A DNA stretch of 64,000 bases from an uncultured Nitrospinota bacterium (GCA_964570665.1 CAZMZH010000002.1:365642-429641), one strand, 5' to 3'; numbered from the stretch's first letter, positions 12,295 through 39,038 are shown. Notes: generated from the letters alone by a model not told the origin. Made by a program: numbers and translations.

Positions 12295-12297
12295 TTA

Positions 12298-13788: not shown

Positions 13789-13803
13789 AACTTTATTGCG
13801 ACT

Positions 13804-16155: not shown

Positions 16156-16241
16156 TTTTTAGATATACCTGAGCCAAGATTGATAGCAAAAGCTTTGGCT
16201 TTTTTCAAAATTTGTAAAATAAGTTGGAAGGCGAAAAAGTA

Positions 16242-18491: not shown

Positions 18492-18554
18492 TAATTTTGC
18501 GACAAAAGATAATTTCGATTATTCATATTAGTTTGAAAAGTATGGAGGATTGCT

Positions 18555-19603: not shown

Positions 19604-19768
19604 ATTTAAATTGTATAAAAATTAAGAGGGAATTTTGACGACAACGCGCAAACTTTTTATAGCCTGTAGTATTACGGTTAAAAGCTTTGACCATATCCGT
19701 TTTAATAATATTTCACAGGCAGCAAGCAGTCGTTTGATTAATAACGAATTGGTCCGGGAGGACGTTAA

Positions 19769-22204
19769 ATGAAAAACTGGTCTTTAAACAAAAAAGCTAT
19801 ATTTGTATTTAGTTTGATGATCGTAGTTATGGGATTTTGCGCCTACGTCATTTTTGACTCCTTGAGTTCAGCTCAAAAAGACGCGGATATCACCAACGCT
19901 TTGGGAAGACAAAGAATGCTGAGTCAGGCTATGGGTAAAGCCGCTTTGGGTAACGCTATGGCTAAAAGCCGCAAGCAGAATATAGTTCAACGCGTAAAGT
20001 CTCTGGATCATTATATTACTCAAATGCGAGGAACTTATACAAAGCAGGTAATTGGGCCAGCTAAAGAAAATGGTCTTGCAATTAGCATGGACCCCGAATC
20101 CGAAGGGCATCCGGCAATTCCTTTTCCCGCTACTTTGACGCGAATGGTGAACGCTAAGTTTGGAGCTGGCAGAGATTTTACTATCGATATTATTTCTCCA
20201 GATCCTGTAAACCCTGATAAAGGGTTAATCACGGATTTTGATAAAGAAGCTTATGAGTTTTTAACAAAAAAATCGAAAAGTGTTTTTACAAGAACTTTTG
20301 AATTGGACGATAAATTATATATCAGATTATATACCGCCGATAAGGCTACCGTTCAAGTTTGCGCTGATTGTCATATGGCTTTGAAGGGCGGAAAACGTTT
20401 TGCAATTGGAGATATTTTAGGTATCAGAAAGTACAATTTGTTGTTTTCAGCCGATATTTCTAGAGGGCGAAACGAATTAAACGCAAGCTTAACGGAGTTT
20501 GACCACGCTAAACAAATTTTTAAAGATACTTTAAAGGCTATGAGAAAGGGAGGGGAATATCCTGCAGATATGGGATTTAAAAAGTCGGTATCCGTAAACG
20601 CCATAAATAACGAAACAATTCAAGATAATCTTGAAGAAGTGGATAGAGTTTTTAACAAGTTTTTGGCGGCAGTGGATAACCTTCTTACTTCGGAAGTAAA
20701 TTCTCCAAGATATAGAGACGCGCAACAAGAAATTGTAAGTTTATCAAATGAATTGCGAGATAAGAGCAATAAGATTGTGGATTTGTATAATCGACTAGCC
20801 AATGAAAATCAAAAGCGTATAAAAAGTATAGTCATAGTTTTTGTTATTTTGATTTTAGCGGCTTTGATTAGCATAGCTTATTTCTTTTCTACTTCTGTTG
20901 TAAAACCGGTCCGTAAAATTTCTGGAGTTATGGGCGAAGTAGCCAAGGGAAATTTTATGCAGGAAAACTTGCCAGTGGTTTCTGAAGACGAAATTGGAGT
21001 ATTGTCCGATACTTATAATACGATGTTAGGCACCATGCGGCAAATTGTTAATCAGGCTAAAGATATAGCCGATGGCGATTTATCGAAAACTTATGAGTTG
21101 AAAGGAGAACTTTCTGTTGCTTTTGGGAAGATGACCAATGAGCTTAGAGACAAGCAAAACGCTGATATCGAATTTAAAGAAATGGCGACAGAGAGAGAAT
21201 CGCAGGCGGAAGATTTAAAGAATAAGGTCGACGCCATTTTGGAATGCGTTAGCGCTGCGGCAAAAGGAGACTTGAGCAAACATATAGATGTGAAGGGAGA
21301 ATCTGCCATCGGCCAAATGGGAGAAGGTCTGGAAATGTTTTTTGATAATTTGTCGACTAACATGAAGGGGATAGCTAACATGGCAAACGATTTGGCATTT
21401 TCCGCAAAAGAGATTTCAAGTTCTGTCCAAGATCAGGCATCGGTTTCCGCCGAGCAATCGGCGTCTGTAACTGAAATTTCTTCCACCGTAGAAGAACTTT
21501 CGGCTTCGTCAAATCAAGTCGCGGAGAATGCAGATTCTGTAGCCCGTATTTCAGCCGATTCGTTGCATGACTCTGAACGGGGTATGAAAGCTATTGGGTC
21601 TTTAAAGCTTAAGATGGATGAGATTTCTGAGGATAATCAGGGAGGAATGAAAGAAATTGTCGAATTAGGTAGAAAATCTAATGAAATTGGTAAAGTTATG
21701 GAAATAATTAACAATATTGCGGATCAAACCAAGTTAATTGCGTTTAATGCCGCTATAGAAGCCTCTAGCGCAGGTGAAGCGGGAAAACGTTTTGGAGTTG
21801 TAGCGGTTGAAATTCGCCAATTAGCAGATAATGTTATGGATTCGACGGGCGAAATCCAAAGCAAAATTGATGAAATTCAACAGGCTATTAATAGGTTAGT
21901 TATAAATTCAGAGCAAGGATCCAATCGAATTAAAGAAGGAAATATGTTGGCTGGACAAACAATTGAAGAATTAGAAAGATTGGTCGATAGAGCTAAAAGC
22001 GCTGCTGATGCGGCGTCTCAAATTTCTCTTTCGACAAAACAACAAAAAACGGGCACTGAACAAGTATTGTCGGCATTAAAAGAAATTGTTAATGGAACGC
22101 GGCAATCGTCGTCTGCGATTAAGCAAACCTCGAATGTGACGCATAAATTATCTGAAATGTCAGAAAGACTGAACGAACTAGTTAGTAGGTTTAAACTAGA
22201 TTAA
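19769..22204 (+). CDS. Methyl-accepting chemotaxis protein with a PilJ/NarX-type N-terminal motif and a CXXCH-containing periplasmic sensor domain
   Basis: TM1 (aa ~10-30), a ~320-aa periplasmic region with GRQRMLSQAMGKA and CADCH (nt 20360-20374), then TM2, HAMP-like segments and a signalling hairpin (IADQTKLIAFNAAIEASSAGEAGKRFGVVAVEIRQLAD). Confidence 0.9.
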   Translation: MKNWSLNKKAIFVFSLMIVVMGFCAYVIFDSLSSAQKDADITNALGRQRMLSQAMGKAALGNAMAKSRKQNIVQRVKSLDHYITQMRGTYTKQVIGPAKENGLAISMDPESEGHPAIPFPATLTRMVNAKFGAGRDFTIDIISPDPVNPDKGLITDFDKEAYEFLTKKSKSVFTRTFELDDKLYIRLYTADKATVQVCADCHMALKGGKRFAIGDILGIRKYNLLFSADISRGRNELNASLTEFDHAKQIFKDTLKAMRKGGEYPADMGFKKSVSVNAINNETIQDNLEEVDRVFNKFLAAVDNLLTSEVNSPRYRDAQQEIVSLSNELRDKSNKIVDLYNRLANENQKRIKSIVIVFVILILAALISIAYFFSTSVVKPVRKISGVMGEVAKGNFMQENLPVVSEDEIGVLSDTYNTMLGTMRQIVNQAKDIADGDLSKTYELKGELSVAFGKMTNELRDKQNADIEFKEMATERESQAEDLKNKVDAILECVSAAAKGDLSKHIDVKGESAIGQMGEGLEMFFDNLSTNMKGIANMANDLAFSAKEISSSVQDQASVSAEQSASVTEISSTVEELSASSNQVAENADSVARISADSLHDSERGMKAIGSLKLKMDEISEDNQGGMKEIVELGRKSNEIGKVMEIINNIADQTKLIAFNAAIEASSAGEAGKRFGVVAVEIRQLADNVMDSTGEIQSKIDEIQQAINRLVINSEQGSNRIKEGNMLAGQTIEELERLVDRAKSAADAASQISLSTKQQKTGTEQVLSALKEIVNGTRQSSSAIKQTSNVTHKLSEMSERLNELVSRFKLD

Positions 22205-23718: not shown

Positions 23719-24807
23719 TTAAGGTTTAAAACTTGAAGAGATATTTTCTTTAATATCTTTCGCGCAACGAAAGCCAAAACTATTATTTTTTACTTCGGGA
23801 GTAAAAAAACTGCGGTTAAATGTAGGAGCGCTTAATCCACACCCATAAGATAAACAATCGAACCAAGATCCTCCCTTCAATACTCTATTCCTTTTTCCAT
23901 ATTCTGGACGGGGGATGGTGTTGCCTTCATGCGGTAGATAGAAGCTATCTACCCATTCCCAGACATTCCCGGACATATCGTGCAATCCATATGGGCTTTT
24001 CCCTTGAGGGTAAGAGCCTATTGGTTTAGTTCCTGTGGAACCAATATAAGGATTGTTTGACCTATCTAGGCTCCATTTGTTTCCCCAGGGATAGATTAAT
24101 CCGTTTTCCCCTCGAGCTGCTTTTTCCCACTCTTCCTCAGTAGGCAATCGTTTTCCCGACCAATTGCAGTAATTAGTTGCATCAAACCAATTTACATAAA
24201 TTACGGGGTGTTTTTCCTTTCCTTTGGGTATTTGTCCTTTTGCCCAGTGGTAAGGGGGCTCTGAGTTTGTTGCATCAACATATTTTTTATAATCTTGATT
24301 GGTTATTTCGAACAGATCTATATAAAACGCTTTCGTTTCCGTTATAAACTCAGGAGATTCATCATCCCACCGGTCATTAGAACCCATGATGAACTCCCCC
24401 TTTGGAATAAAGGCCATGTTTTCAGGAGTGAGTTTATTAGCTTTTGATTTCACCTTTTTTGTAAGCTTAAAATCTGGTTGGTGAGTTATATCTGGGGTTA
24501 TTTGAAGGTTATTAGAAGCAATTTTAAGTCTTTTTGGAGTTTTATTTTTTAAGCTTGATCTAAATGGCGATACTGGAATAGCGCTTTTTCTATTTGAGTG
24601 ACACTGTTTGCAGGAGTCCAACTCAAGTTTATTTTTTTTAATATTAGTCAGGTTTTCTGGCAGGTGACAACTCGTTTGGCAAGTTTGGTTAGAACTTTTA
24701 AAATGAGAAAATTTTTCAAAACCGAAAACAGAAGAAACTATATTAAATATAAAGAAGGCCTGAAAAATAAAAAAAATATAAAAAGTTAAGCGTATTTGAT
24801 TTAACAT
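23719..24807 (-). CDS. Formylglycine-generating-enzyme family protein (FGE-sulfatase/SUMF1 fold) with N-terminal membrane anchor and heme-c-type Cys motifs
   Basis: FGE motifs RLPTEEEWEKAARG, YPWGN, GNVWEWV, RVLKGGSW. A C-x4-C pair (CLSYGC) sits where the FGE copper-binding Cys pair lies. The N-terminus has a hydrophobic helix plus CQTSCH (24664-24681) and CKQCH (24598-24612). Confidence 0.8.
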   Translation of the reverse strand: MLNQIRLTFYIFFIFQAFFIFNIVSSVFGFEKFSHFKSSNQTCQTSCHLPENLTNIKKNKLELDSCKQCHSNRKSAIPVSPFRSSLKNKTPKRLKIASNNLQITPDITHQPDFKLTKKVKSKANKLTPENMAFIPKGEFIMGSNDRWDDESPEFITETKAFYIDLFEITNQDYKKYVDATNSEPPYHWAKGQIPKGKEKHPVIYVNWFDATNYCNWSGKRLPTEEEWEKAARGENGLIYPWGNKWSLDRSNNPYIGSTGTKPIGSYPQGKSPYGLHDMSGNVWEWVDSFYLPHEGNTIPRPEYGKRNRVLKGGSWFDCLSYGCGLSAPTFNRSFFTPEVKNNSFGFRCAKDIKENISSSFKP

Positions 24808-25834: not shown

Positions 25835-26695
25835 ATGATAAAGTTTAGATTTTGGGGAGTAAGAGGTAGCGTTCCTTCTGGGAGCCCTGATACCGCAAAA
25901 TTTGGCGGTAATACTACTTGCCTAGAAGTTCGTTGCAATGAAGAATTGCTGATTTTTGATAGCGGCACCGGAATACGATATTTGGGTAATGAACTGATGA
26001 AGAGCTTGCCTATAAAAGGCAAGATTTTTTATTCCCATGTTCATTGGGATCACATTCAAGGGTTACCTTTTTTTACTCCACTTTACGTTCCCGGTAATGA
26101 GTTTCAAATTTATGGCGGCTCTAGTATGCCTGTTACGATTGAAGAGACTCTAAAAAAACAAATGACAGCCCCTTGTTTTCCAGTGCCAATGGATATAATG
26201 GGAGCAAAAATTGAGTTTTTTGACGTTGCTCCTGGAGATATTGTTAATGGGGAGAGTTACCAAGTTTCATTTGCTAGTCAGAACCACCCCAATAATTCTT
26301 TTGCTTTTAGGATAGATTGTGAGGATCAATCGATAGTATTTGCTACCGATACAGAACATTATGAAGATAAAATGGACGAAAACCTGCTTAAGCTGTGCCA
26401 AGGTGCCGACTATTTAATTTATGATAGCCAGTACACTTATGACGAATATCATGGATTAAACGGTCAGATGTCTCGAAAAACTTGGGGACATAGTACAGCT
26501 GAAGAAGGTTTAAAGTTAGTTAAAGAAGCTGGCGTTAAAAACTTTGTCCTTTTCCATCATGATCCAACCCATAACGATGAATTTATTTGTAGACTTGAAC
26601 GAAATGCCAAGGAGGTTTTTCCAAATTCCATCGCCGCTTATGAAGGATTGGAAATTGAAGTGGGCAAACCCATCCCTGATTCTTTGTTTAGTTAA
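25835..26695 (+). CDS. MBL-fold metallo-hydrolase
   Basis: 286 aa with N-terminal FWGVRGSVP ... GGNTTCLEV, the HVHWDH metal motif, and later D/H ligands (TDTEH, FHHDP). Confidence 0.8.
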   Translation: MIKFRFWGVRGSVPSGSPDTAKFGGNTTCLEVRCNEELLIFDSGTGIRYLGNELMKSLPIKGKIFYSHVHWDHIQGLPFFTPLYVPGNEFQIYGGSSMPVTIEETLKKQMTAPCFPVPMDIMGAKIEFFDVAPGDIVNGESYQVSFASQNHPNNSFAFRIDCEDQSIVFATDTEHYEDKMDENLLKLCQGADYLIYDSQYTYDEYHGLNGQMSRKTWGHSTAEEGLKLVKEAGVKNFVLFHHDPTHNDEFICRLERNAKEVFPNSIAAYEGLEIEVGKPIPDSLFS

Positions 26696-27923
26696 ACTTT
26701 CCTTTTTTCTTTTTTTAGTCTTTTTTTTAGATAGTTGTTCCTCTACTAAAAAGATACTTGGCCCAGATCCCCAATCCCATCGTTATGTAGACCTTACAAA
26801 GAAATATTTTCCCGATTTGCCCACTGGTATTCGCAAAGCGCTTTTTTTCTTTGTCAATTCTGATAAAAAAATCGATTGGATGGCTTTGACCAGGCCAAGA
26901 GAAAAATACCCTAACCCTAGCCTTCATTTTTTTTTAAATAATAAAAATAAACCGTTTACGCGAATTAATCGAACCGGTTTTAATAATCCGTTAAAAGTTA
27001 AGCAGCTTGATATTTCTCCAGGGGATTTGACTAGAGATAGAGCGGAGGATTTGCTTTTGCTAGGCAATACTGGAAAAGGTAATCGTGCTCTAGTTTTTTT
27101 TAATAATAAAAAAGGGTACTTTTATCGCCCTCCAAAAGAGATAACTCCGAAAATTGATCCTTCCATGGATCGAGGTTTGCTTGTTGACCTGGATTATGAC
27201 GGAGATTTAGATATGTTTTTTACTCGAAGGGGTAAGGGAAGAGTAAAAAACTCTAACTCAGTACAATTTTTTGTAAATAATGGAAAAGGAGGTTTTATTG
27301 ATAGGACGTCCCTGCTATTTCCCAAAATAAATCATCCTATTTCTGGACTTTCTATAGCGGATTATGATGGAGATCAAGTTTTTGATATATTTTTATTGAA
27401 TTCTAATGGAAAAAATACGCTTTGGATAAATAATGGCTCTGGTAAGTTTAAGGACGCCTCATCTTATTCTCTTCCAAATATTCCAGCACATTACGCCTTT
27501 GCCGATTGGGCAGATTTTGATCAAGATGGGGATAACGATTTATTAGTTACCACTACAAATTTAACCAAACGGTTTTCGAGGTTTGAAGGCGAATATAGCT
27601 TTTTCTTAGAGAACGATGGGAAGGGTCATTTTACCAAGCGTTCATTAAAGCTTTTACCTAAATACCCATCAACGCGCGTTTATTTGTTAGACGCGGATGG
27701 TAATGATATTCCAGATATTATTATTATAAGTAAAAAAGGAGCTCACCTTTTGGTTGGCCATGGAGGTTGGAAGTTTTCCGATGAAACCTTGAGAAGATTC
27801 CCCAAGGATAGGAGACTTGATGAAATGACCTTTGGAGATGTTGATGGCGACGGTTATTTGGATATTTTTAGCGTGGATTCGAAAAAGGGAGTGGGAAAAC
27901 TGTGGGTTAGCCGTTTTGAATAA
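26640..27923 (+). CDS. FG-GAP/VCBS-repeat lipoprotein (start uncertain)
   Basis: Repeated Ca-binding-like loops DLDYDGDLDMFF, IADYDGDQVFDIFL, WADFDQDGDNDLLV, LLDADGNDIPDIII, FGDVDGDGYLDIF. A lipobox-like FFLDS|C follows a hydrophobic stretch. The first plausible ATG (26640) overlaps the MBL gene by 56 nt. Confidence 0.7.
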   Translation: MKDWKLKWANPSLILCLVKLSFFLFLVFFLDSCSSTKKILGPDPQSHRYVDLTKKYFPDLPTGIRKALFFFVNSDKKIDWMALTRPREKYPNPSLHFFLNNKNKPFTRINRTGFNNPLKVKQLDISPGDLTRDRAEDLLLLGNTGKGNRALVFFNNKKGYFYRPPKEITPKIDPSMDRGLLVDLDYDGDLDMFFTRRGKGRVKNSNSVQFFVNNGKGGFIDRTSLLFPKINHPISGLSIADYDGDQVFDIFLLNSNGKNTLWINNGSGKFKDASSYSLPNIPAHYAFADWADFDQDGDNDLLVTTTNLTKRFSRFEGEYSFFLENDGKGHFTKRSLKLLPKYPSTRVYLLDADGNDIPDIIIISKKGAHLLVGHGGWKFSDETLRRFPKDRRLDEMTFGDVDGDGYLDIFSVDSKKGVGKLWVSRFE

Positions 27924-27951: not shown

Positions 27952-28482
27952 TTATTTAATTAATGTTTTACGCAAGACATTTAAAGAGTTTAGAAGAGTT
28001 ACAGTATGGTTTTCATAATCTAATTCTCCCGAAACCCAATCTTTAAAATCTTGGAATAGAGTCGACCCCGCGTCTCTTATTTGACTTTTTTTAATATCGA
28101 TGACGTCTAATACCGAACTGGCAAGTATTCCGGCACGGATATCCTCGTTTTCTAATATCATTATTCGATTATTTGCGTTTCTTTCCTCAGAAGGTAATCC
28201 TAAAAAGTCTCCAATCTCTATAACCGATTCAATTTCTCCTCGGATATTTACTAATCCCAATATGTGTTTAGGCGCAGTTGGAACAGGGTTGATCTTCTTA
28301 ATAGGAATAATTTCAGAAACGTCTAAACCCTTTAAAGCAAAATAAGCTCCTCGGATTTCAAATATCACTAAAATTATTAGCGGTTCTTTAATTAATCCCG
28401 CGATTCCTTTTTTCTCACGGATTTTCTTGATCCGTTTAACAATTTTTGAGGTTTTTTCTTTTGGATTTTGATTCGACTCCAT
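27952..28482 (-). CDS. cheW: CheW paralog (third CheW-like gene in the window)
   Basis: 176 aa, clearly similar to the CheW at 18555 (ILGLVNIRGEIESVIEIGDFLGL ... ILASSVLDVIDI). Basic N-terminal extension. Lies 30 bp downstream of the caspase gene. Confidence 0.85.
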   Translation of the reverse strand: MESNQNPKEKTSKIVKRIKKIREKKGIAGLIKEPLIILVIFEIRGAYFALKGLDVSEIIPIKKINPVPTAPKHILGLVNIRGEIESVIEIGDFLGLPSEERNANNRIMILENEDIRAGILASSVLDVIDIKKSQIRDAGSTLFQDFKDWVSGELDYENHTVTLLNSLNVLRKTLIK

Positions 28483-28512
28483 CTATGCCTCTTTTATCGT
28501 GATAAAGCGCGT

Positions 28513-29964
28513 TCAATCTTCAATAAATAATTTCCAAGTGTAATCTGGGGTTGCCGATAATAAATCCATAGAAAGCTTTAAAATGTCCCCTTTTCGGAAA
28601 CATGGCTTTGACTCCAAATAAGAATCTTTGGGAATTCCATCTTTATCATAAAAAGTAAGCCGAATACCAGGCCTTCCTTTTATAAACCATCCCGATCCAG
28701 ATTCAGTTTTACATAATAATCGCACGTTTAAACATTTATGGGTACCGCATTCTGTTTCTTCAACCTTTAATACCTGTACGGCTTTATTCGCAGGAAGTTT
28801 CAAATTATATTTTATAGGATTTTGTAATTTTTTTCGAATTTCAAGCCGAGTCAATTGATTTATGCGTTCTGTTTTTTCGCGGCCTTGCTTTACGGATGCA
28901 ATTTTTTCTTGAAGTTCAAGTTTTAATAAAGCTAATTCTTGAAGTAGTTTTTCTTGTTTTTTTAGTTCTTCCTTTTGACTTACTTCAAGATTATGTTTTT
29001 TTTTCTTTAAATTTTTCGTTAAGTCAACCACACGATCGGAAATAGAAATTGGAAAAACAAAATCTCCTTGATCTAGGACGGCGTCTCGTAATTTCCCATA
29101 TTGTGGAACTTGACTACCTTTAGAATAATTGGTAACTGCATTTTCTAAAAATTGTCCCAACTCAGACCCAGTAATATAACCATCTCGATTTAAGTCGCCA
29201 TCGCCATTAAAAGCGCGAACGAATTGTCTCCGAAAAATGCTTTCGTCTGGAACTGATTGATTGGCTCGACCGGCGGCAATAAATTGTCGAACTGGTTTTC
29301 CAGTTTTTTCTTTTATAATCTGCGGGATTCCACGGCTAGTGGCGAATATAGACCCGGCAAAACAACTGTCGAATATAAACAATGCGTGCTTAGATTGAAT
29401 TGCTCTTGCGTATACCTCTATATTTTGCATGCTCATGGCTTTGCGTAAAAAGCCTCTTTTATCCGTATTTGGATTCGGAGTGTCTCTTGGAACAATAAAG
29501 CCCATTTCTGTTCCTCCATATTGAGGAACTAATGTGTATCCATGACCTGCAAAATAAAATAGTAGTCTATTTCCCTCGGCAAGACCATATCGGTCTACAA
29601 AGCTATCAAAGGCTTGATTTAGCTTTTCGCGTGTCGGATCTATAACAGTTTCAACTGAAAATCCTAATATTTCAAGAACTTCTTTTACCGATGCGATGTC
29701 TGAAATGACTCCAGGTAAGGCAGGCCATAAGCCTTTGTAGTCGCTTACCCCAATTAACAGCGCGTGACTTTCGTTGTATAAGCCAATAGTCGCTCCTTCT
29801 CCATCAATAATTGGGATGGGGATAATTCCTCGATCTAAAGGATCGCTCTGCTTACTTAAGTTTTGAGATTTTGATAAGCTGGATGGGATTTGTTCCAAAT
29901 TAGGCCCAGCGCATCCTAAAGAACAGATTAAGAAAGCGGCGGAAATTTGGAGCGGCAATTTCAT
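28513..29964 (-). CDS. Caspase-family (peptidase C14) lipoprotein with EF-hand-like loop, coiled coil and Cys-containing C-terminal domain
   Basis: Start moved to the ATG at 29964 (MKLPLQISAAFLICSLG|C lipobox). HALLIGVSDY, catalytic His in LFYFAGHG and Cys in IFDSCFAGS. The 12-residue loop DLNRDGYITGSE (29161-29196) fits the EF-hand pattern. A K/E/L/Q-rich coiled coil is followed by ~100 aa with 4 Cys. Confidence 0.85.
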   Translation of the reverse strand: MKLPLQISAAFLICSLGCAGPNLEQIPSSLSKSQNLSKQSDPLDRGIIPIPIIDGEGATIGLYNESHALLIGVSDYKGLWPALPGVISDIASVKEVLEILGFSVETVIDPTREKLNQAFDSFVDRYGLAEGNRLLFYFAGHGYTLVPQYGGTEMGFIVPRDTPNPNTDKRGFLRKAMSMQNIEVYARAIQSKHALFIFDSCFAGSIFATSRGIPQIIKEKTGKPVRQFIAAGRANQSVPDESIFRRQFVRAFNGDGDLNRDGYITGSELGQFLENAVTNYSKGSQVPQYGKLRDAVLDQGDFVFPISISDRVVDLTKNLKKKKHNLEVSQKEELKKQEKLLQELALLKLELQEKIASVKQGREKTERINQLTRLEIRKKLQNPIKYNLKLPANKAVQVLKVEETECGTHKCLNVRLLCKTESGSGWFIKGRPGIRLTFYDKDGIPKDSYLESKPCFRKGDILKLSMDLLSATPDYTWKLFIED

Positions 29965-30034
29965 TGGTCTAAGATAAAAAGTTTTTCTACATGATATCTT
30001 GAATTTATTTAAAACCCCAAGAGGTTTATAAAAA

Positions 30035-31123
30035 TTAATGAAATCCAAATATGGGTTCGGTAAGGTTTTGCAGATAAGGAGTATTTTCTAAAGCTTCGGC
30101 CCCAATCGCGCTGATTTTATTTTCTTCTAAAGTGAGCGTTTTCAGTTGTGCTGAATTTGGAGATTTGGCAATAGCGCTTGCGCCTTCGTCTCCAATAAAG
30201 TTGTAGTTTAAATCAAGATTTTCTAGTTTTTTTAAATTTTGTGATTTGGATATTACTATCGCTCCTATATCTCCAATTTTATTGTTGGATAATTTTAAAG
30301 ACTTTAATTGAGAAAAAGCTGGAGAATTTGCGATTTGAGTAATAGCTGCATCGGTTAGGTCGTTATAGGCTAAATTCAATTTAACTAATTGGGAAGCGAA
30401 AGGAGTTTCTAATAGGGCCTCAATTCCTATATCGCCAATGTACTGATTTTCCAAATTACTTAAAGTTCCTTTTTTTTGCATGTCGGAGAATTTAACTTTG
30501 TGCTCAAACTTTAAGAGCGCCTTCTTTCCACTCGATTCAATAGGATTGTATGAAAGATATAATTTTATCAAATTATTTAGTTTGTTTGAGGAAGTTACTT
30601 TAAGAGTTCCGTCGGCGCCAATGTTGTTATAACTTAGGTTTAGTTCTTTTAGCGCAGACATGTTATTCGAATTGGCCAAAAGCGTAGCGCCTTTATCGCT
30701 AATATTATTCCGGTATAAACTTAGCGATTTTAACTTCGAAAAAATTGGCGATTGGGCAATCGCGCTAACTCCGATGTCAGTAATGTTATTGTTGCCTAGC
30801 TCAAGGGTTTGTAGCCCTGTTAACTTATTTGATGTAGCTAATTCCTTGAGACCTTCGTCGCCAATTCCTGTGTCGTATAAAATCAAAGTGTCGAGGTCTT
30901 TAAGTAAAGACGACTGAGATAAAAATTTTGCGCCTTCTATTCCTATTAGTTTTGATTTAATTCTTAACGTATGTTTATTTCTTCTAATCTTTTTCTTAAC
31001 GTATTTTTCTAATTTTTCAATAGTTACTGGCGCCGATGCTCCGAAAGAAAATAAGCAACATATTAAAATCCAAGCCCAGGATTTTACTTGCAAAGTGGTT
31101 TTTTTACCTTTTTGTATAATCAT
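30035..31123 (-). CDS. Secreted leucine-rich-repeat protein, ribonuclease-inhibitor (RNI/NLR) type repeats
   Basis: Signal peptide (WAWILICCLFSFGASA|P), then about ten ~24-25-aa repeats L..L.L..N.IGD.GA..IA.S... Its ATG directly abuts the stop of the upstream LRR gene (TAAATG). Confidence 0.85.
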   Translation of the reverse strand: MIIQKGKKTTLQVKSWAWILICCLFSFGASAPVTIEKLEKYVKKKIRRNKHTLRIKSKLIGIEGAKFLSQSSLLKDLDTLILYDTGIGDEGLKELATSNKLTGLQTLELGNNNITDIGVSAIAQSPIFSKLKSLSLYRNNISDKGATLLANSNNMSALKELNLSYNNIGADGTLKVTSSNKLNNLIKLYLSYNPIESSGKKALLKFEHKVKFSDMQKKGTLSNLENQYIGDIGIEALLETPFASQLVKLNLAYNDLTDAAITQIANSPAFSQLKSLKLSNNKIGDIGAIVISKSQNLKKLENLDLNYNFIGDEGASAIAKSPNSAQLKTLTLEENKISAIGAEALENTPYLQNLTEPIFGFH

Positions 31124-32134
31124 TTAATTTTCTTGACGTCCTTCCAATTCTCGACCCGACAAAACTTCTCCTGGATCAAAGGGGAAAATAGTATTAGTCA
31201 AGTTTTTTAAATAGGGCGATTCTTTTATTAGTTGAATACCTTTGTCGCCTACTTCATTTCCCCAGATTTCCAAAATCGACAAGGATTTGAGATGAGCAGA
31301 TTTGGATAAATCCTTTGCTCCTTGAAGGACAAATCCATTCCATTGTAGATTCAATTTTTTTAGTTTGGAAAAAGCTTTTGTGTTTGCTAAATGTCGAATT
31401 CCTTCGTTGCCTAGTTTGTTTTGCCTCAAATTTAGTTCAATTAAGCCGTTAATCTTAGCGGATGTTTTCCAATGTTTTATTCCTTTAGGGCCTATATTAT
31501 TTTTCGAAACGTCTAGTATTCTTAAATTAGGCAAATTAGAAGATTCTGCAATCGCGGCAATTCCTTCGTTTCCAATGTGGTTGTCCCCTAATAATAATAC
31601 CTTTAGAGAATTAAATTTTGCTTTTGCAATTGCTTTTGCTCCATCGGAACCAATTTGGTTTCCAGAAAGATCCAGAAATTCTAATCGCGTCAGGTTTTGC
31701 GACTTAGCGATTCCATCGACGATTCCTTTATCTCCAATTTTATTACCCCAGAGATTTAAATAAGTTAATATTTTTACATTATTAGAAAAAGCCAAAGCAA
31801 TTGCGCCATCTGATCCAATATTATTATGGAATAAGTCTAGCGATTTAAGGTTAGTGAGATAAGGAGAATCCGCTAAATTTTGTGCGCCTTGATCGGTTAT
31901 CTCGTGGGTTTGTAGACGGAGAGTTTTCACATGGCGTATCATTTTTGATTGAGCTAAAGCTTTTATCCCTGAATCTTTTAGAATTCCACTTCCTCCCATA
32001 TCCAAATGAGTATTGTTTTTGGTTAAATCGTTAAATATAAATTGATTAACGTCAAATGCATGGGTTAAGAGAGGAAATACGGTAAAACATGTAAAAAAGA
32101 AGCACGCTGCTTTAACTTCTTTAATTTTTCTCAT
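31124..32134 (-). CDS. Secreted leucine-rich-repeat protein, RNI/NLR type repeats
   Basis: Signal peptide (ACFFFTCFTVFPLLTHA|F), then about ten repeats such as LKSLDLFHNNIGSDGAIALAFS and LEFLDLSGNQIGSDGAKAIAKA. Confidence 0.85.
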   Translation of the reverse strand: MRKIKEVKAACFFFTCFTVFPLLTHAFDVNQFIFNDLTKNNTHLDMGGSGILKDSGIKALAQSKMIRHVKTLRLQTHEITDQGAQNLADSPYLTNLKSLDLFHNNIGSDGAIALAFSNNVKILTYLNLWGNKIGDKGIVDGIAKSQNLTRLEFLDLSGNQIGSDGAKAIAKAKFNSLKVLLLGDNHIGNEGIAAIAESSNLPNLRILDVSKNNIGPKGIKHWKTSAKINGLIELNLRQNKLGNEGIRHLANTKAFSKLKKLNLQWNGFVLQGAKDLSKSAHLKSLSILEIWGNEVGDKGIQLIKESPYLKNLTNTIFPFDPGEVLSGRELEGRQEN

Positions 32135-32154
32135 ATTATTTTGATCTTTGAGGA

Positions 32155-34308
32155 TTAAGGGAAATTGTGGACTATAAGGTTTACTTCCAAACCATCTTGC
32201 AAATAACCAAAGTTAGCGATACCGGCAATTGTGGTTACAATACCTTGAGGGTCTATTTTTCTAATTCGATTATTTCCTCGATCAGTGACATAGAGATTGC
32301 CCATTGAGTCAAATGCCATATCGCGAGGATTTTGAAAATTGGCTTTAACGGCAAGACCGCCGTCGCCTGAAAAACCGCCGTCGCCAGTACCCGCGACTGG
32401 AATAATTTGACCTTTTTTATCAATTTTCCTGATGCGATGCGTTTGTTGTTCGCAAATGTATAGTTCGTTGTCAGGGGATATCGCTAAGGCTCCCGGAGAC
32501 CGAATGCCTGCCGAAATAGCGGGACCATAGTCGCCATGATCTCTAAAATCCCCGTTACCTGCAATGATTTCAACTTTATTATTAGAGTTGATTTTGTATA
32601 TTTTCCCAACGCCGGAATCTGATACATATATGTTATTTGCGGAATCAATTGCTATTCCATTAGGATGAATATCGCCGGGCAAGGCATCCCAAGCTTTTTC
32701 TGCTACTTTTGATATGATTCCATTGGTGGCTATTTTTCGGATAAATCGATTAGATCTGTCCGCTATATATAGTTCATCCTCAGTACCCACCGCAATCGCT
32801 CTTATAGTTACAAATGAAGCGTCTAAAGCTTGGCCTTCGTCCCCGCCGGTTCCAGCCAAGGCATTTCCAGCAAAAGGCTTTATTTGCCCCTTCGAATCAA
32901 TATTTATGATGCGCCAGCCGTTACCATTTCTTTCAACGGCATATATGTCTCCATTGTTTCCTCTAGCGACAAAATTTGGCCTTAATAAAGAAGTTTCAAG
33001 CGCTAGTCCTGAGGTCCCGCTTGAGCTAGCCTTGCCAGTTCCTGCAAAGGCATGAATATTCCCGTCGGCGTCAATTTTTCGCAACCTGTTTTGCATTTGG
33101 TCTGCGAATATAATTTCATTTTTTTCGTTGAAGGTTATCCCTGAAGGACCTTCAAGTGTTGCTCCGAGCGCGGGTCCTCCATCTCCTTTCAATAAAGATT
33201 TTCCATTCCCGGCAATGGTTTTGACACGACCAGAAAGAAAATCGACTTTTCGAATTCGGAAATGGGATCTATCCACCACGAGTAGGCTTTTTTGATCTGA
33301 TCCAATAGCCAAAGAAAATGGTAAATGTAAATTGGATTGAGAAGCGACGCCTTGATCGCCGTTATAATGAGTTAATCCTGTTCCCATAAATGTAGTTATA
33401 ATTCCATCAGGGTCTACTTTTCGAACGCGATTATTATTGCGATCGGCAATATAAATATTGCCTTTATTATCTGCGGCAACATCGGTAGGGAAAGCTAAAT
33501 CTCCTTGATTTGCGGGTCCATAATCTCCTCGAATGGCAAAAAGACCTGTTCCGGCAACAGTATAGACGGTTCCATCCGGATCAATTTTTCGGATGCGGTT
33601 ATTCCCACGATCTGCAACAAATAAATTACCTTGGTTGTCGAATGTAAGCCCAAAGGGGAATTTAAAAAAAGCTTCGTCGGCAGGACCGAAATCTCCTCCA
33701 TAACTAGGAACTCCCATTCCTGCATAGGTAGTAATTATTCCATTAGTATCTACCTTTCGGATACGGTTATTGGACCGATCTGAAATATAAATTTGTCCAG
33801 ACTTATCGATGGCTACATCAGATGGGAAATGAAGGCTGGTTTCAGTTGCCTTCATGTTATCTCCCGAATAATCTGGAATTCCATTACCGGCAATTGTTGT
33901 AATAATTCCATCTGGATCAATCTTTCGTACACGATGGTTATTACGATCGGCTATGTAGAGATTTCCTGTTGAATCAAAAGCTAAGCCAGCTGGAAAGTTT
34001 AGCGATGCATTGATTGCTGGTCCTTCATCTCCCGAAAATCCTGCGCGCCCATTACCCGAAATAGTGGTTACTATTCCGTTTTGATCAATTTTTCGAATTC
34101 TATTTTGAGAACGATGGGAAATATAAATATTTCCTTTTGGGCCGATAGCAATACCGTCAACCAAAGTAAAAATTACAGAAGTGGCTTTTTGCCCATCGCC
34201 TATTTTTTTGTAGGGAAATGAGTCCGCCGAAAAAGCTTTGAAAGGAACCCCAAGCGCAAGAAGCCCAATTATTACGGCTAGTTTTCTAAAATAAATTAAG
34301 TTTTGCAT
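32155..34308 (-). CDS. Secreted NHL-repeat protein, about 12 blades (two six-bladed beta-propellers)
   Basis: Signal peptide (AVIIGLLALGVPFKAFSA|D). Twelve recognisable repeats of the form P.G.A.D..GN.YIADR.NNRIRKID.DG.ITT.AG.G..G.SGD.GPA. Confidence 0.9.
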   Translation of the reverse strand: MQNLIYFRKLAVIIGLLALGVPFKAFSADSFPYKKIGDGQKATSVIFTLVDGIAIGPKGNIYISHRSQNRIRKIDQNGIVTTISGNGRAGFSGDEGPAINASLNFPAGLAFDSTGNLYIADRNNHRVRKIDPDGIITTIAGNGIPDYSGDNMKATETSLHFPSDVAIDKSGQIYISDRSNNRIRKVDTNGIITTYAGMGVPSYGGDFGPADEAFFKFPFGLTFDNQGNLFVADRGNNRIRKIDPDGTVYTVAGTGLFAIRGDYGPANQGDLAFPTDVAADNKGNIYIADRNNNRVRKVDPDGIITTFMGTGLTHYNGDQGVASQSNLHLPFSLAIGSDQKSLLVVDRSHFRIRKVDFLSGRVKTIAGNGKSLLKGDGGPALGATLEGPSGITFNEKNEIIFADQMQNRLRKIDADGNIHAFAGTGKASSSGTSGLALETSLLRPNFVARGNNGDIYAVERNGNGWRIINIDSKGQIKPFAGNALAGTGGDEGQALDASFVTIRAIAVGTEDELYIADRSNRFIRKIATNGIISKVAEKAWDALPGDIHPNGIAIDSANNIYVSDSGVGKIYKINSNNKVEIIAGNGDFRDHGDYGPAISAGIRSPGALAISPDNELYICEQQTHRIRKIDKKGQIIPVAGTGDGGFSGDGGLAVKANFQNPRDMAFDSMGNLYVTDRGNNRIRKIDPQGIVTTIAGIANFGYLQDGLEVNLIVHNFP

Positions 34309-34358
34309 AATCCAGTTTTAAGAATTTATAAACCTTATATTCTATTGCTAATTGACCA

Positions 34359-34385
34359 AAATTCTAAAGCAAAATTTTAGAATTT
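34359..34385. repeat. Inverted repeat AAATTCTAAA-N7-TTTAGAATTT upstream of the NHL/LRR/caspase gene run (function unknown)
   Basis: Read directly. 10-bp perfect arms with a 7-nt spacer, 51-77 bp upstream of the NHL gene start at 34308 on the minus strand. Confidence 0.45.
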
Positions 34386-34454
34386 ATATAAAACGGAAAA
34401 TAACGAGAGGATTCAATATATTATTGAATAGGTATAGAAATTTCTGTCTCTTTG

Positions 34455-36743
34455 CTAGCTTTTAGAATTGAAGGTGCTTCGATTATATTCTTCTAATGCT
34501 TGTTTGTTTTGCTTTATCGAAAGAGTGGGTAAAAGTGGTTTTCTTTCCAAGGACCCATATTGGAGCTGGAATTGATTGAAAGTGGCCAACTTTTCCTTAT
34601 ATTCGTCTGTTTTTTTATCTGCGTTTTTTAAATAATGTTTTAGGTGGATTGCGAACATAAAAGGCGAGTTTTCTACTTTTAAATAATAATCAGATAACAT
34701 TCTATGAATATAAGGGTTGTTAGGAGCAATCAATAACCCTGAATAAAGAGTATCAATGGCTTTTTGAGGTTGATTTAATTTACCCAATGCTACACCGAGT
34801 TCTAAATATAATGATGCGTCTGTTGTGTTCCATAGATTTAATTTTGAATAGCTATTAATTACTTTTTCCCAACGGTGATTTAAAAAATGACTTCTTGCAT
34901 TATTTTTTTCTGAATTAAATTGATTTTGTTTTTCTTTAATTAAAGTCATTAATCGATCTAACTCAATTTTTAAAGCCGCTACTTTGATCTTGTCCGATTC
35001 TAATTTAAGCCAGCGTTGAATTATGCATATTTTTATTGCTTGATTCCTGTTGGTTTGATCGAAAAGTTTCGCCAGTAAAGTAAATATTTTTGGATCTTCC
35101 ATTTCCATAAGCGAGCCTATAACTAAAGTGCGAAACTCCTTAGATTGGTCTCCAGTTTTTTGATAAATCATTGATAGGATTTTAAATGGAAGAGGGTGGA
35201 ATGGGTTTATCTCAAATGCGAGATTTGCAATTTTTGCGGCTTCTATCAGTTGATCGTTTTTTAAAAGGGCTGCCGAGTAAACATCGTAAACTGTCGATAA
35301 TAGAACGGACCCTTTGTTATGCTGTGTGTCGATATTTATTTCATCATTCCAAAGCTTTGAAGCAATGATTTCTATTTTGTTGAGATTAAAAGTCCTGGCG
35401 TTTTTAAAATAAGCAATGCCCATTTGGAAATAATCGGAGATTCGGATTTTCCCTTCCGGAGTGGGATATGTTTTCATAACTAGGCTCAATATTAAAACGC
35501 ATATTAATACGGGAATGCCTTGGGACCACTTTTTATGTTTAAGTTTTTTTGAAATCCAATAAATAGCATAGGCAGAAAATATTGCTAGAAATGGAATTAC
35601 AGGTAATCGAAATCTTGAAGTTGCGTAAAATGGCAGAAACATTAATAAGTGCGTAAAAAAGTAAGCATGTAATAATGTCCATTGTCTTTTTTTCTTTTTT
35701 GTTAAAATAATTCCTACGATTCCAAACGATCCAAAAAAAGCAAAGGGAATTGAACTCCATTGGAGAATGGGAGAAATCTCCTGGAAAAGGTAAAAGTTTA
35801 AAGTTGTGGGGGCTTCATAGTTGTTGAATAGAAAAAATATTTTTCTTAAATACAATTCAAGAAAACTTTTTGGATTTTCCCACGCGTTTTGAATTAAAAA
35901 ATTTATGGTTGAAGTGGTAGTTAAGGGATTGTCTTTGATAAAATTATTAAATATTGGGGAATGACGATAACCGCGCCCTGGATAATCGGGTGTATTCGAC
36001 ATGAGCAAAGTTTCGGGTCCCCCTTGATCGTAAAATACCAAGTGATTATGTACTAGATACCCCCTATAAAGTAGAGGTGTGGAAAATAAGATGAAAACGA
36101 TTGTGAATAATCCAATTAAAGTTTTTCTATTTTCAACTTGATTTTGGAGAGCCCTCCAAATGAAAAAAAAGCCAACGGGAATTAATAGCAAATTGTTCGA
36201 TCTGCATTGCATGACTAAAGATAATAGAGTGGCGCTTAAAGCGATTCGGGCCACAGTTGGTTTATAAGAGGCCCAAAGGATTCCATAGCAGGAGAAGACC
36301 GTTAAAAAGGTTGTCAAAGAAGCGCGATATAGCGATCCTTCATAAAGCCAATTAGGTCCATAAAAAGTAAACAATAGAGCGGCAAGGAGTCCAACGATAG
36401 GTTTAAAAAAATAATTTGATATTTTATATATTAAAAGCGCCGACACGGTTCCTAATAAAAATTGGGTGAGCCATACTGCCTTATACGTTTCGCCAAAGAG
36501 CAAATAAATTACTCCAAGAAAATACTTGTAAAGCGGAGAAAAAACGTCTGATTGGTCAGGGTCTTTGGCTAGAAAATTTCCATTGGCAAACTCTTTTCCT
36601 CCTTTATCAAAGATATCTTGATCCCAGGCTTGTGGCACAAAGTCAAAGAAGGGATTGTTCTGAAATTGGAAATAATAGGCGATTCGAACGGCGAGAGATA
36701 ATACGATAATAATTAAAGGAAAAAATCGGGACGGAATCGACAT
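34455..36743 (-). CDS. Putative GT-C fold membrane glycosyltransferase (GT39/ArnT/PMT-like) fused to a C-terminal TPR domain
   Basis: 762 aa. About 11 TM helices in the first ~430 aa with an acidic first loop (AWDQDIFDKG), then a soluble helical-repeat (TPR-like) half. The family call is by architecture only. Confidence 0.6.
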   Translation of the reverse strand: MSIPSRFFPLIIIVLSLAVRIAYYFQFQNNPFFDFVPQAWDQDIFDKGGKEFANGNFLAKDPDQSDVFSPLYKYFLGVIYLLFGETYKAVWLTQFLLGTVSALLIYKISNYFFKPIVGLLAALLFTFYGPNWLYEGSLYRASLTTFLTVFSCYGILWASYKPTVARIALSATLLSLVMQCRSNNLLLIPVGFFFIWRALQNQVENRKTLIGLFTIVFILFSTPLLYRGYLVHNHLVFYDQGGPETLLMSNTPDYPGRGYRHSPIFNNFIKDNPLTTTSTINFLIQNAWENPKSFLELYLRKIFFLFNNYEAPTTLNFYLFQEISPILQWSSIPFAFFGSFGIVGIILTKKKKRQWTLLHAYFFTHLLMFLPFYATSRFRLPVIPFLAIFSAYAIYWISKKLKHKKWSQGIPVLICVLILSLVMKTYPTPEGKIRISDYFQMGIAYFKNARTFNLNKIEIIASKLWNDEINIDTQHNKGSVLLSTVYDVYSAALLKNDQLIEAAKIANLAFEINPFHPLPFKILSMIYQKTGDQSKEFRTLVIGSLMEMEDPKIFTLLAKLFDQTNRNQAIKICIIQRWLKLESDKIKVAALKIELDRLMTLIKEKQNQFNSEKNNARSHFLNHRWEKVINSYSKLNLWNTTDASLYLELGVALGKLNQPQKAIDTLYSGLLIAPNNPYIHRMLSDYYLKVENSPFMFAIHLKHYLKNADKKTDEYKEKLATFNQFQLQYGSLERKPLLPTLSIKQNKQALEEYNRSTFNSKS

Positions 36744-36787: not shown

Positions 36788-38038
36788 TTATTGTGGCTTG
36801 GAGGTTTTACTTGGGTTGGAAAAAGCGTCGTTATATTTTGCGCCAATGGATTTCCAATCGTAATCTTGAATAATTTCAAATGATTTTTTACCCATTGTTT
36901 GCAAACAATCTTTAGAATAAACAGACATCAATGCTTTAGTTAAAGCGGCTACATCTTTAGGTTGGACAATGATTCCATTTATATCGTGTTTAACCATATC
37001 GGAAATACCTCCGACATCGCTTGCGATAATAGGTTTTCCTGCAGCCATGGCTTCCATAACGACTACCGGAGCCCCTTCGGTTTCTCCAAGACTGTCGACG
37101 ATAGAAGGAAGTATAAGCAGATCGGAGTTTTTTAAATAATTTCGAACTTCGGTTTTTGATTTCATTCCAACAAAGCTTATTTTACTCGTTAATTTAAGTC
37201 GATTAGCTTCCTCTTCGCATTCAGGTTTCATGAACCCGTCTCCTACGATTATCAATCGGGCGTCGGTTTCAATATTAGACCAATCCGCGAATGCGCGAAT
37301 TAAATATGGCAAACCTTTCTTTTCGGTGATTTTTCCCACAAAGAGCACATTTTTTTTAGTGGTATCAATATTTAGGTCTTCTGGGGAAATCTTTTCAGAA
37401 GAATCAAAAAATTGAACCGGAACTCCCATAGGTAAAATTTTAGATCGAATTCTCCTATCAGGAGCTAAAGATTCCAAGACCTCTTGATTTTTTTGGCTTA
37501 CCGGCAAAAAAATATCTGTGTTATCGACGATAAAGCGAGTTAAGAGTTTTCCAAAAGGAATTCGGGCTAATAAAAAGACGTCGGCTGCGTGAATGGTGAC
37601 GGCGTGAAAATAGCCGTACCTCTTTTTAAAAAAGGCTGAAATAAGGCCTTGAGGAACTAACCAATGAGAGTTGACTGTCGTTGCTTTAGTCTTTCTGAGG
37701 GTACGCAAAAAAGCGATCGTTCCCCAGAACATTAAAAATGGAACCTGAATTTTGGCTAATAGGCTTTGACGGATATTGGCTAGCATTCCTTTTCCGTTTG
37801 CTAATATTTGCTTAGATTTTGGCCAAAAAAAAGGAAACCGAAAAACAGATATAGATTCCATCGTTTCATGAGTTGCCGCATCTGGGTCATGAGGCGCCAA
37901 GACATGAGTTGAATAAAACTTGCTCATTTCCTGCGCTAGGCAATATACGAAGTCGGCAGGAGTTTTGTCTCCAAGCCATCTAGGAAAGGTTGAAGTGAAT
38001 ATCAAAAGAGTTTCTTTATTTTGATCGCTATCTGGCAT
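36788..38038 (-). CDS. Glycosyltransferase family 4 (GT-B, group 1)
   Basis: 416 aa with the C-terminal E-x7-E type motif (GETEGAPVVVMEAMAAGKPIIASDVGGISDMV). Confidence 0.85.
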   Translation of the reverse strand: MPDSDQNKETLLIFTSTFPRWLGDKTPADFVYCLAQEMSKFYSTHVLAPHDPDAATHETMESISVFRFPFFWPKSKQILANGKGMLANIRQSLLAKIQVPFLMFWGTIAFLRTLRKTKATTVNSHWLVPQGLISAFFKKRYGYFHAVTIHAADVFLLARIPFGKLLTRFIVDNTDIFLPVSQKNQEVLESLAPDRRIRSKILPMGVPVQFFDSSEKISPEDLNIDTTKKNVLFVGKITEKKGLPYLIRAFADWSNIETDARLIIVGDGFMKPECEEEANRLKLTSKISFVGMKSKTEVRNYLKNSDLLILPSIVDSLGETEGAPVVVMEAMAAGKPIIASDVGGISDMVKHDINGIIVQPKDVAALTKALMSVYSKDCLQTMGKKSFEIIQDYDWKSIGAKYNDAFSNPSKTSKPQ

Positions 38039-38090: not shown

Positions 38091-39038
38091 TCAATCTTTT
38101 TTCTCTAGTTCGATTTTTTTTATTCTGAGCTGAATATCTTCTAATAATTGGCGATTAATGGATATCAATTCCGCAGCTATTCCCATCATGAATACTTGAA
38201 AGCCGACAATCAATAAAATTGCAGAAAGTATTAGAGATTGTATGTGTCCGGCGGTTTGCCCCATAAAAAAATAAAATAAATATCTACACCCTATTAGAAA
38301 CCCACTGGCACAAGCAATACCGCCTGCAATAGTAAAAACCCTTAAAGGCTTATACATAGAATAAATTTTTAACATAGTGACTGCAGATCTCATTAAATAG
38401 GTTCTAATGTTGGGAAATAAACGAGATTCTCGCAGTTTTGGATTTGTTTTTACTGGCGCATGCGTGATTGCTAAGTTTTTTCTACCTGCGCTGATAATGG
38501 TTTCTAATGTGTAGGTAAAGTCAGAAACGACATTAATCTGCATCGCGGCTTCTCTAGAATATGCGCGAAATCCGCTGGTTGCGTCAGGAACTTGGGTGCC
38601 GGATATCCAACGTACGACCTTACTACCAAATTTTTGAAGGAATATTTTTTGAGGTGAAAAATGTTTTATAGTTTCTACTTGTCTATCGCCTATTACGATA
38701 TCAGCCCGCTTTTCTAGTATAGGTTTAATAAGATTTGGAATATCTGCTCCATTATATTGATTATCTGCATCGGTGTTTACAATAATATCCGCTCCTAGCC
38801 GAAGGCATTCGTCGATTCCATATTTAAACGCTTTTGCCAACCCCTTATTGCTTGTAAGGCTAATGACATGATCTACGTTATTAGATTTCGCCACTTCGAC
38901 GGTTTTATCGGTACTTCCGTCGTCAATGATCAGAATTTCAATTGAGGTTACTCCTTCAATTTTTTCCGGGAGATCTTTTAAAGTTTCCGGAAGCGTTTTT
39001 TCCTCGTTTAAGCAAGGGATTTGTATTATGAGTTTCAC
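38091..39038 (-). CDS. GT2 polyprenyl-phosphate glycosyltransferase (DPM1/ArnC/GtrB-like) with C-terminal TM helices
   Basis: IQIPCLNEEKTL ... ILIIDDGSTDKT ... NTDADNQY catalytic pattern, plus two C-terminal TM helices. GTG start. Confidence 0.8.
   Translation of the reverse strand: MKLIIQIPCLNEEKTLPETLKDLPEKIEGVTSIEILIIDDGSTDKTVEVAKSNNVDHVISLTSNKGLAKAFKYGIDECLRLGADIIVNTDADNQYNGADIPNLIKPILEKRADIVIGDRQVETIKHFSPQKIFLQKFGSKVVRWISGTQVPDATSGFRAYSREAAMQINVVSDFTYTLETIISAGRKNLAITHAPVKTNPKLRESRLFPNIRTYLMRSAVTMLKIYSMYKPLRVFTIAGGIACASGFLIGCRYLFYFFMGQTAGHIQSLILSAILLIVGFQVFMMGIAAELISINRQLLEDIQLRIKKIELEKKD

Follow-up and report, generated by a model that had tools for sequence, protein, structure and literature searches.

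The five co-directional genes at positions 27952-34308 of a 64,000-nucleotide stretch from an uncultured Nitrospinota bacterium (GCA_964570665.1, CAZMZH010000002.1:365642-429641; hereafter the window, whose numbering is used for all positions unless a relative is named) are likely to form a composite locus. On this reading a conserved pair of genes, encoding an NHL propeller protein and a leucine-rich repeat (LRR) protein, stands beside an independent caspase-like C14 peptidase and an accessory CheW, and the genes share one direction by chance in one genus. A preliminary description had joined the NHL, LRR and caspase genes into one recognition-and-protease module. The parts of this proposal that hold are the apparent export of four of the proteins and the NHL–LRR link, whereas the peptidase lacks such neighbours elsewhere in its family and has decayed to a pseudogene in a sister lineage. 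The five genes are as follows.

32155-34308, minus strand: NHL protein, 717 amino acids (aa), Pfam NHL 5e-64 and TEN_NHL 1e-66
31124-32134, minus strand: LRR1, 336 aa, Pfam LRR_6 2e-39
30035-31123, minus strand: LRR2, 362 aa, Pfam LRR_6 3e-32
28513-29964, minus strand: caspase-like C14 peptidase, 483 aa from its ATG, Peptidase_C14 3e-17
27952-28482, minus strand: CheW paralogue, 176 aa, Pfam CheW 1e-24

Open reading frame (ORF) calls and inspection of the junctions confirmed the spacing first reported, with gaps of 20, 0, 70 and 30 bp in the order NHL to CheW and the stop codon of LRR1 abutting the ATG of LRR2 (TAAATG); the Pfam scan proposed at that stage likewise matched NHL, LRR_6 (twice), Peptidase_C14 and CheW. 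The longest ORF of the peptidase begins with a TTG at 30048, and the ATG start was taken. The source is a Nitrospinota metagenome-assembled genome (MAG), identical proteins are present on Logan, NCBI and JGI contigs, and the relatives found in a scan of species-representative genomes are Nitrospinales, Nitrospinia or Nitrospinota MAGs.

NHL loci were gathered from look-ups of three orthologues and a metagenome scan, and were divided into orthologue loci (at least 53% identity, n=55) and paralogue loci (44-49% identity, n=29). An LRR_6 gene was directly adjacent to, and co-directional with, the NHL gene in 52 of the 55 orthologue loci, while the remaining 3 end at contig ends; none of the 29 paralogue loci had an LRR neighbour (Fisher p = 2e-19, with many loci coming from related Nitrospinota, such that the counts are not phylogenetically independent). 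The adjacent gene is either an upstream LRR gene of ~262-270 aa, a downstream LRR1 orthologue of ~324-344 aa, or both. Overlaps of 4 bp are frequent in these loci, and signal-like N-termini are found in all NHL ORFs and in 60 of 65 LRR ORFs. The pair also recurs in at least four surroundings, including that of the window. In about 20 loci it lies with the trp operon, a small GT2 gene and a gene of the Aldedh family that is probably proA. Five loci place it beside metal-resistance genes, with a conserved TPR+FGE-sulfatase protein encoded next and an LRR2 orthologue 3-8 kb further along. In the clade of the window it adjoins a GT2-GT4-PMT_2 series. These observations point to a conserved exported NHL–LRR unit of Nitrospinota that occupies several genomic contexts and would often be translationally coupled.

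The relatedness of the sampled genomes lends some weight to a different explanation, namely that the five genes are functionally unrelated neighbours and that NHL and LRR genes adjoin through shared ancestry alone. We consider this improbable, since the pair is kept in different flanks and in different arrangements, with LRR genes before NHL, after it or on both sides, persists where NHL identity falls to 53%, and is absent from 29 of 29 paralogue loci.

The NHL protein has blade motifs every 56-57 aa along its 689 mature residues, or about 12 blades, and is probably folded as two six-bladed propellers. Its N-terminus has a basic n-region and a hydrophobic core followed by a predicted signal peptide cleavage site (AFSA|D). 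Orthologues across Nitrospinota are full-length (713-720 aa) with 53-85% identity, and scores against the curated NCBIfam NHL families were in every case far below the cut-off. Other bacterial NHL β-propeller proteins, such as the PknD sensor domain and the ScyD/E/F family, share the NHL repeat motif and are exported; the Nitrospinota protein differs from them in its twelve blades, its ...DGLEVN..VHNFP tail and its obligate LRR neighbour. This tail (32158-32200, minus strand; consensus ...(L/W)xDGxEVxIxx(H/Q)(N/D)FP-COOH) is common to LRR-linked orthologues and LRR-less paralogues across loci L087-L170, and could be a sorting or capping motif. A second NHL gene in the window (57072-58535, minus strand, 487 aa) has another architecture, combining a thioredoxin/AhpC-TSA domain with NHL repeats.

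LRR1 and LRR2 are built from LRR_6 repeats of the ribonuclease inhibitor (RNI) type (L..L.L..N.IG..GA), and repeat parsing resolves each protein into at least 8 units that recur every 27 aa (26-28), rather than the 24-25 aa first estimated. Repeats in ribonuclease inhibitor proper alternate between 28 and 29 aa. Both N-termini show a basic n-region, a hydrophobic core and predicted cleavage sites (THA|F and GASA|P, respectively) consistent with export. A search of a 5.8-billion-protein index with LRR1 returned relatives of only ~30% identity, from Planctomycetes and eukaryotes, and missed both LRR1 itself and its 60-73% identical orthologues; LRR genes also had no precomputed Pfam match in the contig tables, and these proteins seem to be absent from, or masked in, the index. 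LRR orthologues were therefore traced through NHL neighbourhoods. In this way LRR1 orthologues (40-59% identity) were located in other Nitrospinota as the gene immediately after NHL, many of them overlapping it by 4 bp, and a further clade proved to have LRR2 orthologues (47-51% identity) at 3-8 kb beyond NHL-LRR1. The closest homologues outside Nitrospinota, the RNI-like LRR_6 proteins of Planctomycetes (TIGR02996 family) and eukaryotes, have the same repeat type at ~30% identity, whereas LRR1 and LRR2 are small, LRR-only proteins with signal peptides and a 27-aa period, encoded beside an NHL propeller gene.

Two side observations concern the LRR genes. LRR2 is broken into ORFs of 220 and 148 aa in GCA_038154245.1 (L003/L007, 8798-9917), while it is whole (362 aa) in Logan assembly L004, whose caspase is identical to that of GCA_038154245.1; the split is either an assembly error or a strain polymorphism. 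A third LRR_6 protein of the window (63268-63837, plus strand, 189 aa) has the 27-aa repeat type, lacks a signal peptide and lies far from the NHL genes.

The peptidase, on the other hand, belongs to a family with a wide distribution of its own. More than 1000 homologues with 55-62% identity over residues ~45-305 were found in Nitrospinota, Desulfobacterota, Bacteroidota, Acidobacteriota, Alphaproteobacteria and other phyla, and their C-terminal domains include FGE-sulfatase, TPR, SH3_3, TonB_C, PEGA, cytochrome c, Lcl_C, PDZ and others in Pfam. We examined the neighbourhoods of family members at 77 other loci (0.99 Mb, 33 loci with at least 5 kb on both sides). None of the 77 had an NHL, LRR or CheW relative near the caspase-family gene, even at E ≤ 1e-3, and no neighbour of any kind recurred among them, though some loci hold tandem arrays. 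The only apparent recurrent neighbour cluster proved to be a shadow ORF lying antisense to the caspase gene, and was discarded. In one NHL–LRR locus (L124) an unrelated caspase paralogue lies 3 kb upstream.

The association of the peptidase and CheW with the NHL–LRR pair is confined to one genus-level clade, plus a pseudogene remnant in its sister lineage. Full-length peptidase orthologues (82-84% identity) occur in 4-5 genomes, in which a region of ~20 kb is syntenic, including unrelated flanks (Lipase_GDSL, glycosyltransferases, FG-GAP, MBL, LplA, FGE-sulfatase and MCP genes). All five genes are under purifying selection (ratio of nonsynonymous to synonymous divergence, dN/dS, of 0.04-0.14 at dS of about 0.9-1.7), and the flanking genes are likewise. 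Because the flanks are equally syntenic, the conserved order carries no specific signal for a single module, and gene-order conservation inside the genus says little about function. A comparison of gene order in relatives had been suggested in the preliminary description; it shows all five genes kept together in one genus, but only NHL–LRR kept beyond it.

Within the window the run of genes in one direction extends to eight, with three glycosyltransferase genes upstream of NHL and a 146 bp gap before it.

38091-39038, minus strand: GT2, co-directional and upstream of NHL
36788-38038, minus strand: GT4, co-directional and upstream of NHL
34455-36743, minus strand: PMT_2+TPR GT-C glycosyltransferase, co-directional and upstream of NHL

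The synteny of these three genes with the locus is limited to the genus and its sister lineage, and we treat them as probable genomic context rather than as demonstrated members of the unit.

The sister lineage separates the parts of the locus. Its NHL protein is 77% identical to that of the window, and it is represented by two independent assemblies (L087 and L088) that are identical over the region. GT2-GT4-PMT_2-NHL-LRR1-LRR2 are intact in both, and are accompanied by a caspase+CheW pseudogene (L087 14351-15512, equivalent to L088 6793-7954). The caspase is frameshifted near its start, is interrupted by an in-frame TGA around codon 123 and carries a +1 frameshift. A deletion of ~1 kb joins its codon ~304 to codon ~77 of CheW, and what is left of CheW contains a frameshift as well. 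The inactivation looks recent, as the remaining caspase core is still 87% identical. With the caspase and CheW broken and NHL–LRR intact, the former two are dispensable in a lineage that keeps the pair.

Two conserved non-coding blocks lie in the intergenic regions of the locus.

34309-34454, minus strand: region upstream of NHL, with conserved block TTAGCAATAnAATATAAGGTTTAC and a promoter-like TTTAGA-N18-TAGAAT at 34368-34339
29965-30034, minus strand: gap between LRR2 and the caspase, with conserved block TTGGGGTTTTAAATAAATTCnAGATATCATGTAnAAAAAC, which reads TTGGGG-N18-TATCAT and is a candidate caspase-CheW promoter

The blocks (34320-34368 and 29975-30015, minus strand) were seen in six-genome alignments in which synonymous sites are at or near saturation; the LRR2–caspase gap retains 77% mean column identity in the six genomes, while the dS of the neighbouring genes is ≥0.8. 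A scan with promoter and terminator consensus sequences found sites no more often than in shuffled sequence and detected no terminator between genes, and is uninformative alone. The position of conserved blocks before NHL and before the caspase suggests two promoters, and thus two putative transcription units, NHL-LRR1-LRR2 and caspase-CheW.

The peptidase is probably an enzyme complete in itself, with the following regions.

residues 1-18: signal peptide with Cys18
residues about 19-44: low-complexity linker
residues 45-305: caspase-like domain with H141, C201, D89 and D199
residues 257-268: canonical EF-hand loop (D257-x-N-x-D-G-x-I-T-x-x-E268; Pfam EF-hand_5)
residues 309-380: coiled coil
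residues 385-483 (28516-28812, minus strand): orphan C-terminal domain, the last 99 aa

The Peptidase_C14 match (63.7 bits against a cut-off of 21.4, E 2.7e-17) includes the His/Cys dyad recognized in the preliminary description, H141 (FAGHG) and C201 (FDSCF), and a 24-sequence family alignment shows that the dyad is invariant, as are D89, D199 and the EF-hand loop D257-E268. The closest solved relative is the MALT1 paracaspase (phmmer 6e-7; Foldseek 1e-10), with metacaspases next. H141 and C201 align to MALT1 H415 and C464, and D89 and D199 to MALT1 D365 and D462, which we take to be acidic S1-pocket residues. Because the corresponding D89 and D199 are acidic, the enzyme is predicted to cleave after a basic residue (Arg or Lys), not after Asp. 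The sequence does not fit an Asp-specific true caspase, which would have a basic S1 pocket (Arg/Gln) and a QACxG motif: here the motif is FDSCF, in which D199 precedes the Cys by two positions, and D89 corresponds to MALT1 D365. The invariant EF-hand loop in turn leads us to predict a dependence on Ca2+.

An AlphaFold2 (AF2) model built with a 24-sequence alignment has a mean per-residue confidence (pLDDT) of 58, with residues 60-200 at 70-90 and the rest poor, such that only the p20 core is usable and the C-terminal domain cannot be interpreted. Foldseek matched this modelled core to MALT1 (E 1e-10, 140 residues at 2.1-2.8 Å), then to metacaspases and caspase-9, and the predicted core thus has the caspase-hemoglobinase fold. 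MALT1 (PDB 3V4O, 3UO8) is the best match in both sequence and fold, including the His/Cys pair and the two acidic S1-pocket residues; it differs in being a cytoplasmic eukaryotic protein with death and Ig domains, and is only ~20-30% identical over the p20-like core. Overall, the family appears to have its nearest kin among paracaspases and metacaspases rather than true caspases.

Export signals had been proposed for the first four proteins of the locus, and all four do have signal-like N-termini, but the ...FLICSLG|C region of the peptidase, first described as a lipobox (LG|C), does not have the textbook form L-[AS]-[GA]-C and is a plausible rather than a canonical site. The Cys is conserved in orthologues (FLGC, and LFGC in L087), with atypical residues at the -3 and -2 positions, and the protein is probably a lipoprotein anchored through its N-terminal Cys. 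Residues 385-483 had no homologue outside their own cluster among 1.84 billion representative proteins, and this domain is covered by the 82-84% identical orthologues only.

Prokaryotic caspase-like proteases described in conflict systems had been characterized at the outset as generally cytoplasmic and STAND-coupled, a premise that overstates the case. Exported prokaryotic C14 proteins with an N-terminal transmembrane segment or signal, and FGE-sulfatase fusions, have already been described as common (PMC3501461), and a signal peptide is present in 24 of 24 aligned members of the family studied here. The orthocaspases or bacterial metacaspases of that survey (Asplund-Samuelsson et al. 2012, PMC3501461) resemble the window protein in the C14 domain with an intact dyad, the N-terminal export signal, and a modular family organization with FGE-sulfatase, TPR and further C-terminal domains. 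What sets the subfamily of the window apart is an EF-hand loop that is invariant and embedded in the protease domain, with a coiled coil after it, and the window protein itself has in addition the lipid-anchor-like Cys and the orphan C-terminal domain. Our searches found no biochemical characterization of a member of this EF-hand C14 subfamily. It constitutes a large, widespread family of exported, MALT1-like C14 peptidases with an EF-hand loop and swappable C-terminal domains, and corrects the impression of bacterial caspase homologues as mainly cytoplasmic, STAND-coupled proteins.

The presence of LRR proteins near a gene for a caspase-fold protease recalls bacterial STAND/NLR–caspase systems and inflammasomes, and one may ask if the locus is a defence or programmed-death system of this kind whose NTPase has disappeared or in which CheW takes the part of an adaptor. 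The PADLOC 'caspase' model does match the domain (2e-13), as a generic caspase domain only, and NCBIfam caspase_w_EACC1 gives a weak match of 50 bits, but the latter is far under its cut-off of 140, and neither NCBIfam nor PADLOC assigned the locus proteins to a curated family or defence system above threshold. Pfam scans of the eight co-directional genes and the flanks bear out the first impression that no NTPase is present, and the eight genes include no EACC1 or other conflict-system component. Moreover, the protease is exported while CheW is cytoplasmic, and the caspase family is expanded, exported and housekeeping-like, with no recurrent neighbour. In contrast to STAND/NLR systems and inflammasomes, the LRRs here are exported as proteins in their own right, Arg/Lys specificity is predicted for the protease, and the LRR–caspase linkage is not conserved (0 of 77 and 0 of 78 loci). 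We regard a defence function as very improbable.

The CheW gene had been placed at the end of the extracytoplasmic module, yet its product is predicted to be cytoplasmic, unlike its four exported neighbours. Its CheW domain scores 87 bits in Pfam, and by tblastn it is 42% identical to, and a paralogue of, the CheW encoded at 18555-19115, which belongs to a complete chemosensory cluster on the opposite strand.

11269-22204, plus strand: Che cluster encoding CheB, CheR-TPR, CheA-CheW-REC, REC-GAF-PAS-cyclase, CheW, a CheW-like protein and a methyl-accepting chemotaxis protein (MCP)

CheA, the MCP and two further CheWs lie 6-16 kb from the locus CheW, which is outside that operon. We consider the latter to be an accessory CheW that stands outside any extracytoplasmic module and probably has its functional home in the Che cluster about 6 kb away. 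The cluster also contains an adenylate/guanylate cyclase with REC-GAF-PAS domains (16224-18491) and its MCP has a Tll0287-like sensor; judging from these components, the Che pathway looks like one with a cyclic-nucleotide output.

In the composite reading that we favour, the double NHL propeller and the RNI-type LRR protein(s) would function jointly, either in the periplasm or at the outer envelope, by forming a complex that binds proteins or ligands. The caspase would probably be a self-contained, membrane-anchored, Ca2+-dependent and Arg/Lys-specific periplasmic protease with its own promoter, targeted by its own swappable C-terminal domain, and CheW would work in the cytoplasm with the Che cluster about 6 kb off. 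Neither the caspase nor CheW would be an obligate partner of NHL–LRR.

Several points weigh against this interpretation. With no terminator found between LRR2 and the caspase, read-through co-transcription is possible, and both promoters are predicted solely from conservation; the function we infer for the NHL–LRR pair is likewise wholly a deduction, and the orphan C-terminal domain could serve as an adaptor for LRR or NHL. Above all, the five-gene order, tight spacing and purifying selection have been kept in the genus across dS of about 0.9-1.7, which leaves a low but appreciable probability of a genus-specific functional coupling of the five genes. In its general form, such a module would consist of an NHL–LRR unit that recruited the lipoprotein protease, with the orphan C-terminal domain docking on LRR or NHL. 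Order and spacing are indeed retained in 4-5 species with saturated synonymous sites and purifying selection on all genes, LRR2 adjoins LRR1 in no clade but the caspase-bearing one, and no other clade has the C-terminal domain of the caspase. We nevertheless judge this module unlikely: unrelated flanking genes are equally syntenic, the sister lineage lost caspase and CheW and kept NHL-LRR1-LRR2, the LRR–caspase linkage was not seen in other examined loci, and between LRR2 and the caspase stands a conserved block that resembles a promoter. A more specific version, in which the phylum-wide exported NHL–LRR unit captured, in this genus, an anchored, Ca2+-dependent, paracaspase-like protease to give an extracytoplasmic, NTPase-free recognise-then-cleave system, possibly with a co-transcribed CheW as its readout, is still more doubtful. 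If true, a five-gene module would be a periplasmic analogue of the LRR-sensor/caspase logic, but the comparative evidence speaks against it.

Under the composite interpretation, the main lead from this locus is the pair of an NHL double propeller and an RNI-type LRR protein, which is uncharacterized and a target for interaction and localization work. Nitrospinota are abundant marine nitrite oxidisers. A search of the Nitrospina literature gave no description of NHL/LRR pairing and nothing specific on the caspase. We regard the novelty of the locus as low to moderate, comprising new members of known families and an NHL–LRR pairing without a description in the literature searched.

Other genes were noted around the NHL–LRR pair in relatives. 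In the clade with 60-63% NHL identity (L089, L091, L093, L139 and L142), the order NHL-LRR1-...-TPR+FGE-sulfatase (436-456 aa)-...-LRR2 is kept, and 3 of these 5 loci also encode a cytochrome c/EB_dh protein together with Lcl_C proteins. Three of the domains concerned, FGE-sulfatase, Lcl_C and cytochrome c, also occur as fusions with caspase paralogues. The window has an exported FGE-sulfatase-domain protein of its own (23719-24807, minus strand), in which a CKQCH heme-binding motif lies close to the N-terminus. This protein was considered as an orthologue of the TPR-FGE-sulfatase protein of the other clade; the two are 32% identical in the FGE domain only and are paralogues, and the idea of an ancestral larger cluster connected through FGE-sulfatase was dropped for this reason. 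A small GT2 of 227-229 aa (40556-41245, plus strand, in the window; 8413-9096 in L090) forms one BLAST cluster and lies near NHL–LRR in 24 of 50 loci. Together with the PMT_2+TPR GT-C protein it hints that periplasmic glycosylation genes travel with the NHL–LRR unit, with plain synteny being an equally possible explanation.

Downstream of the locus CheW, two genes lie on the opposite strand. A metallo-β-lactamase (MBL)-fold hydrolase (25835-26695, plus strand) matches both Anti-Pycsar_Apyc1 and Lactamase_B_2 in Pfam, and is followed by an FG-GAP lipoprotein (26544-27923, plus strand). The longest ORF of the latter overlaps the hydrolase gene by ~150 bp, so its start at 26544 is probably mis-set.

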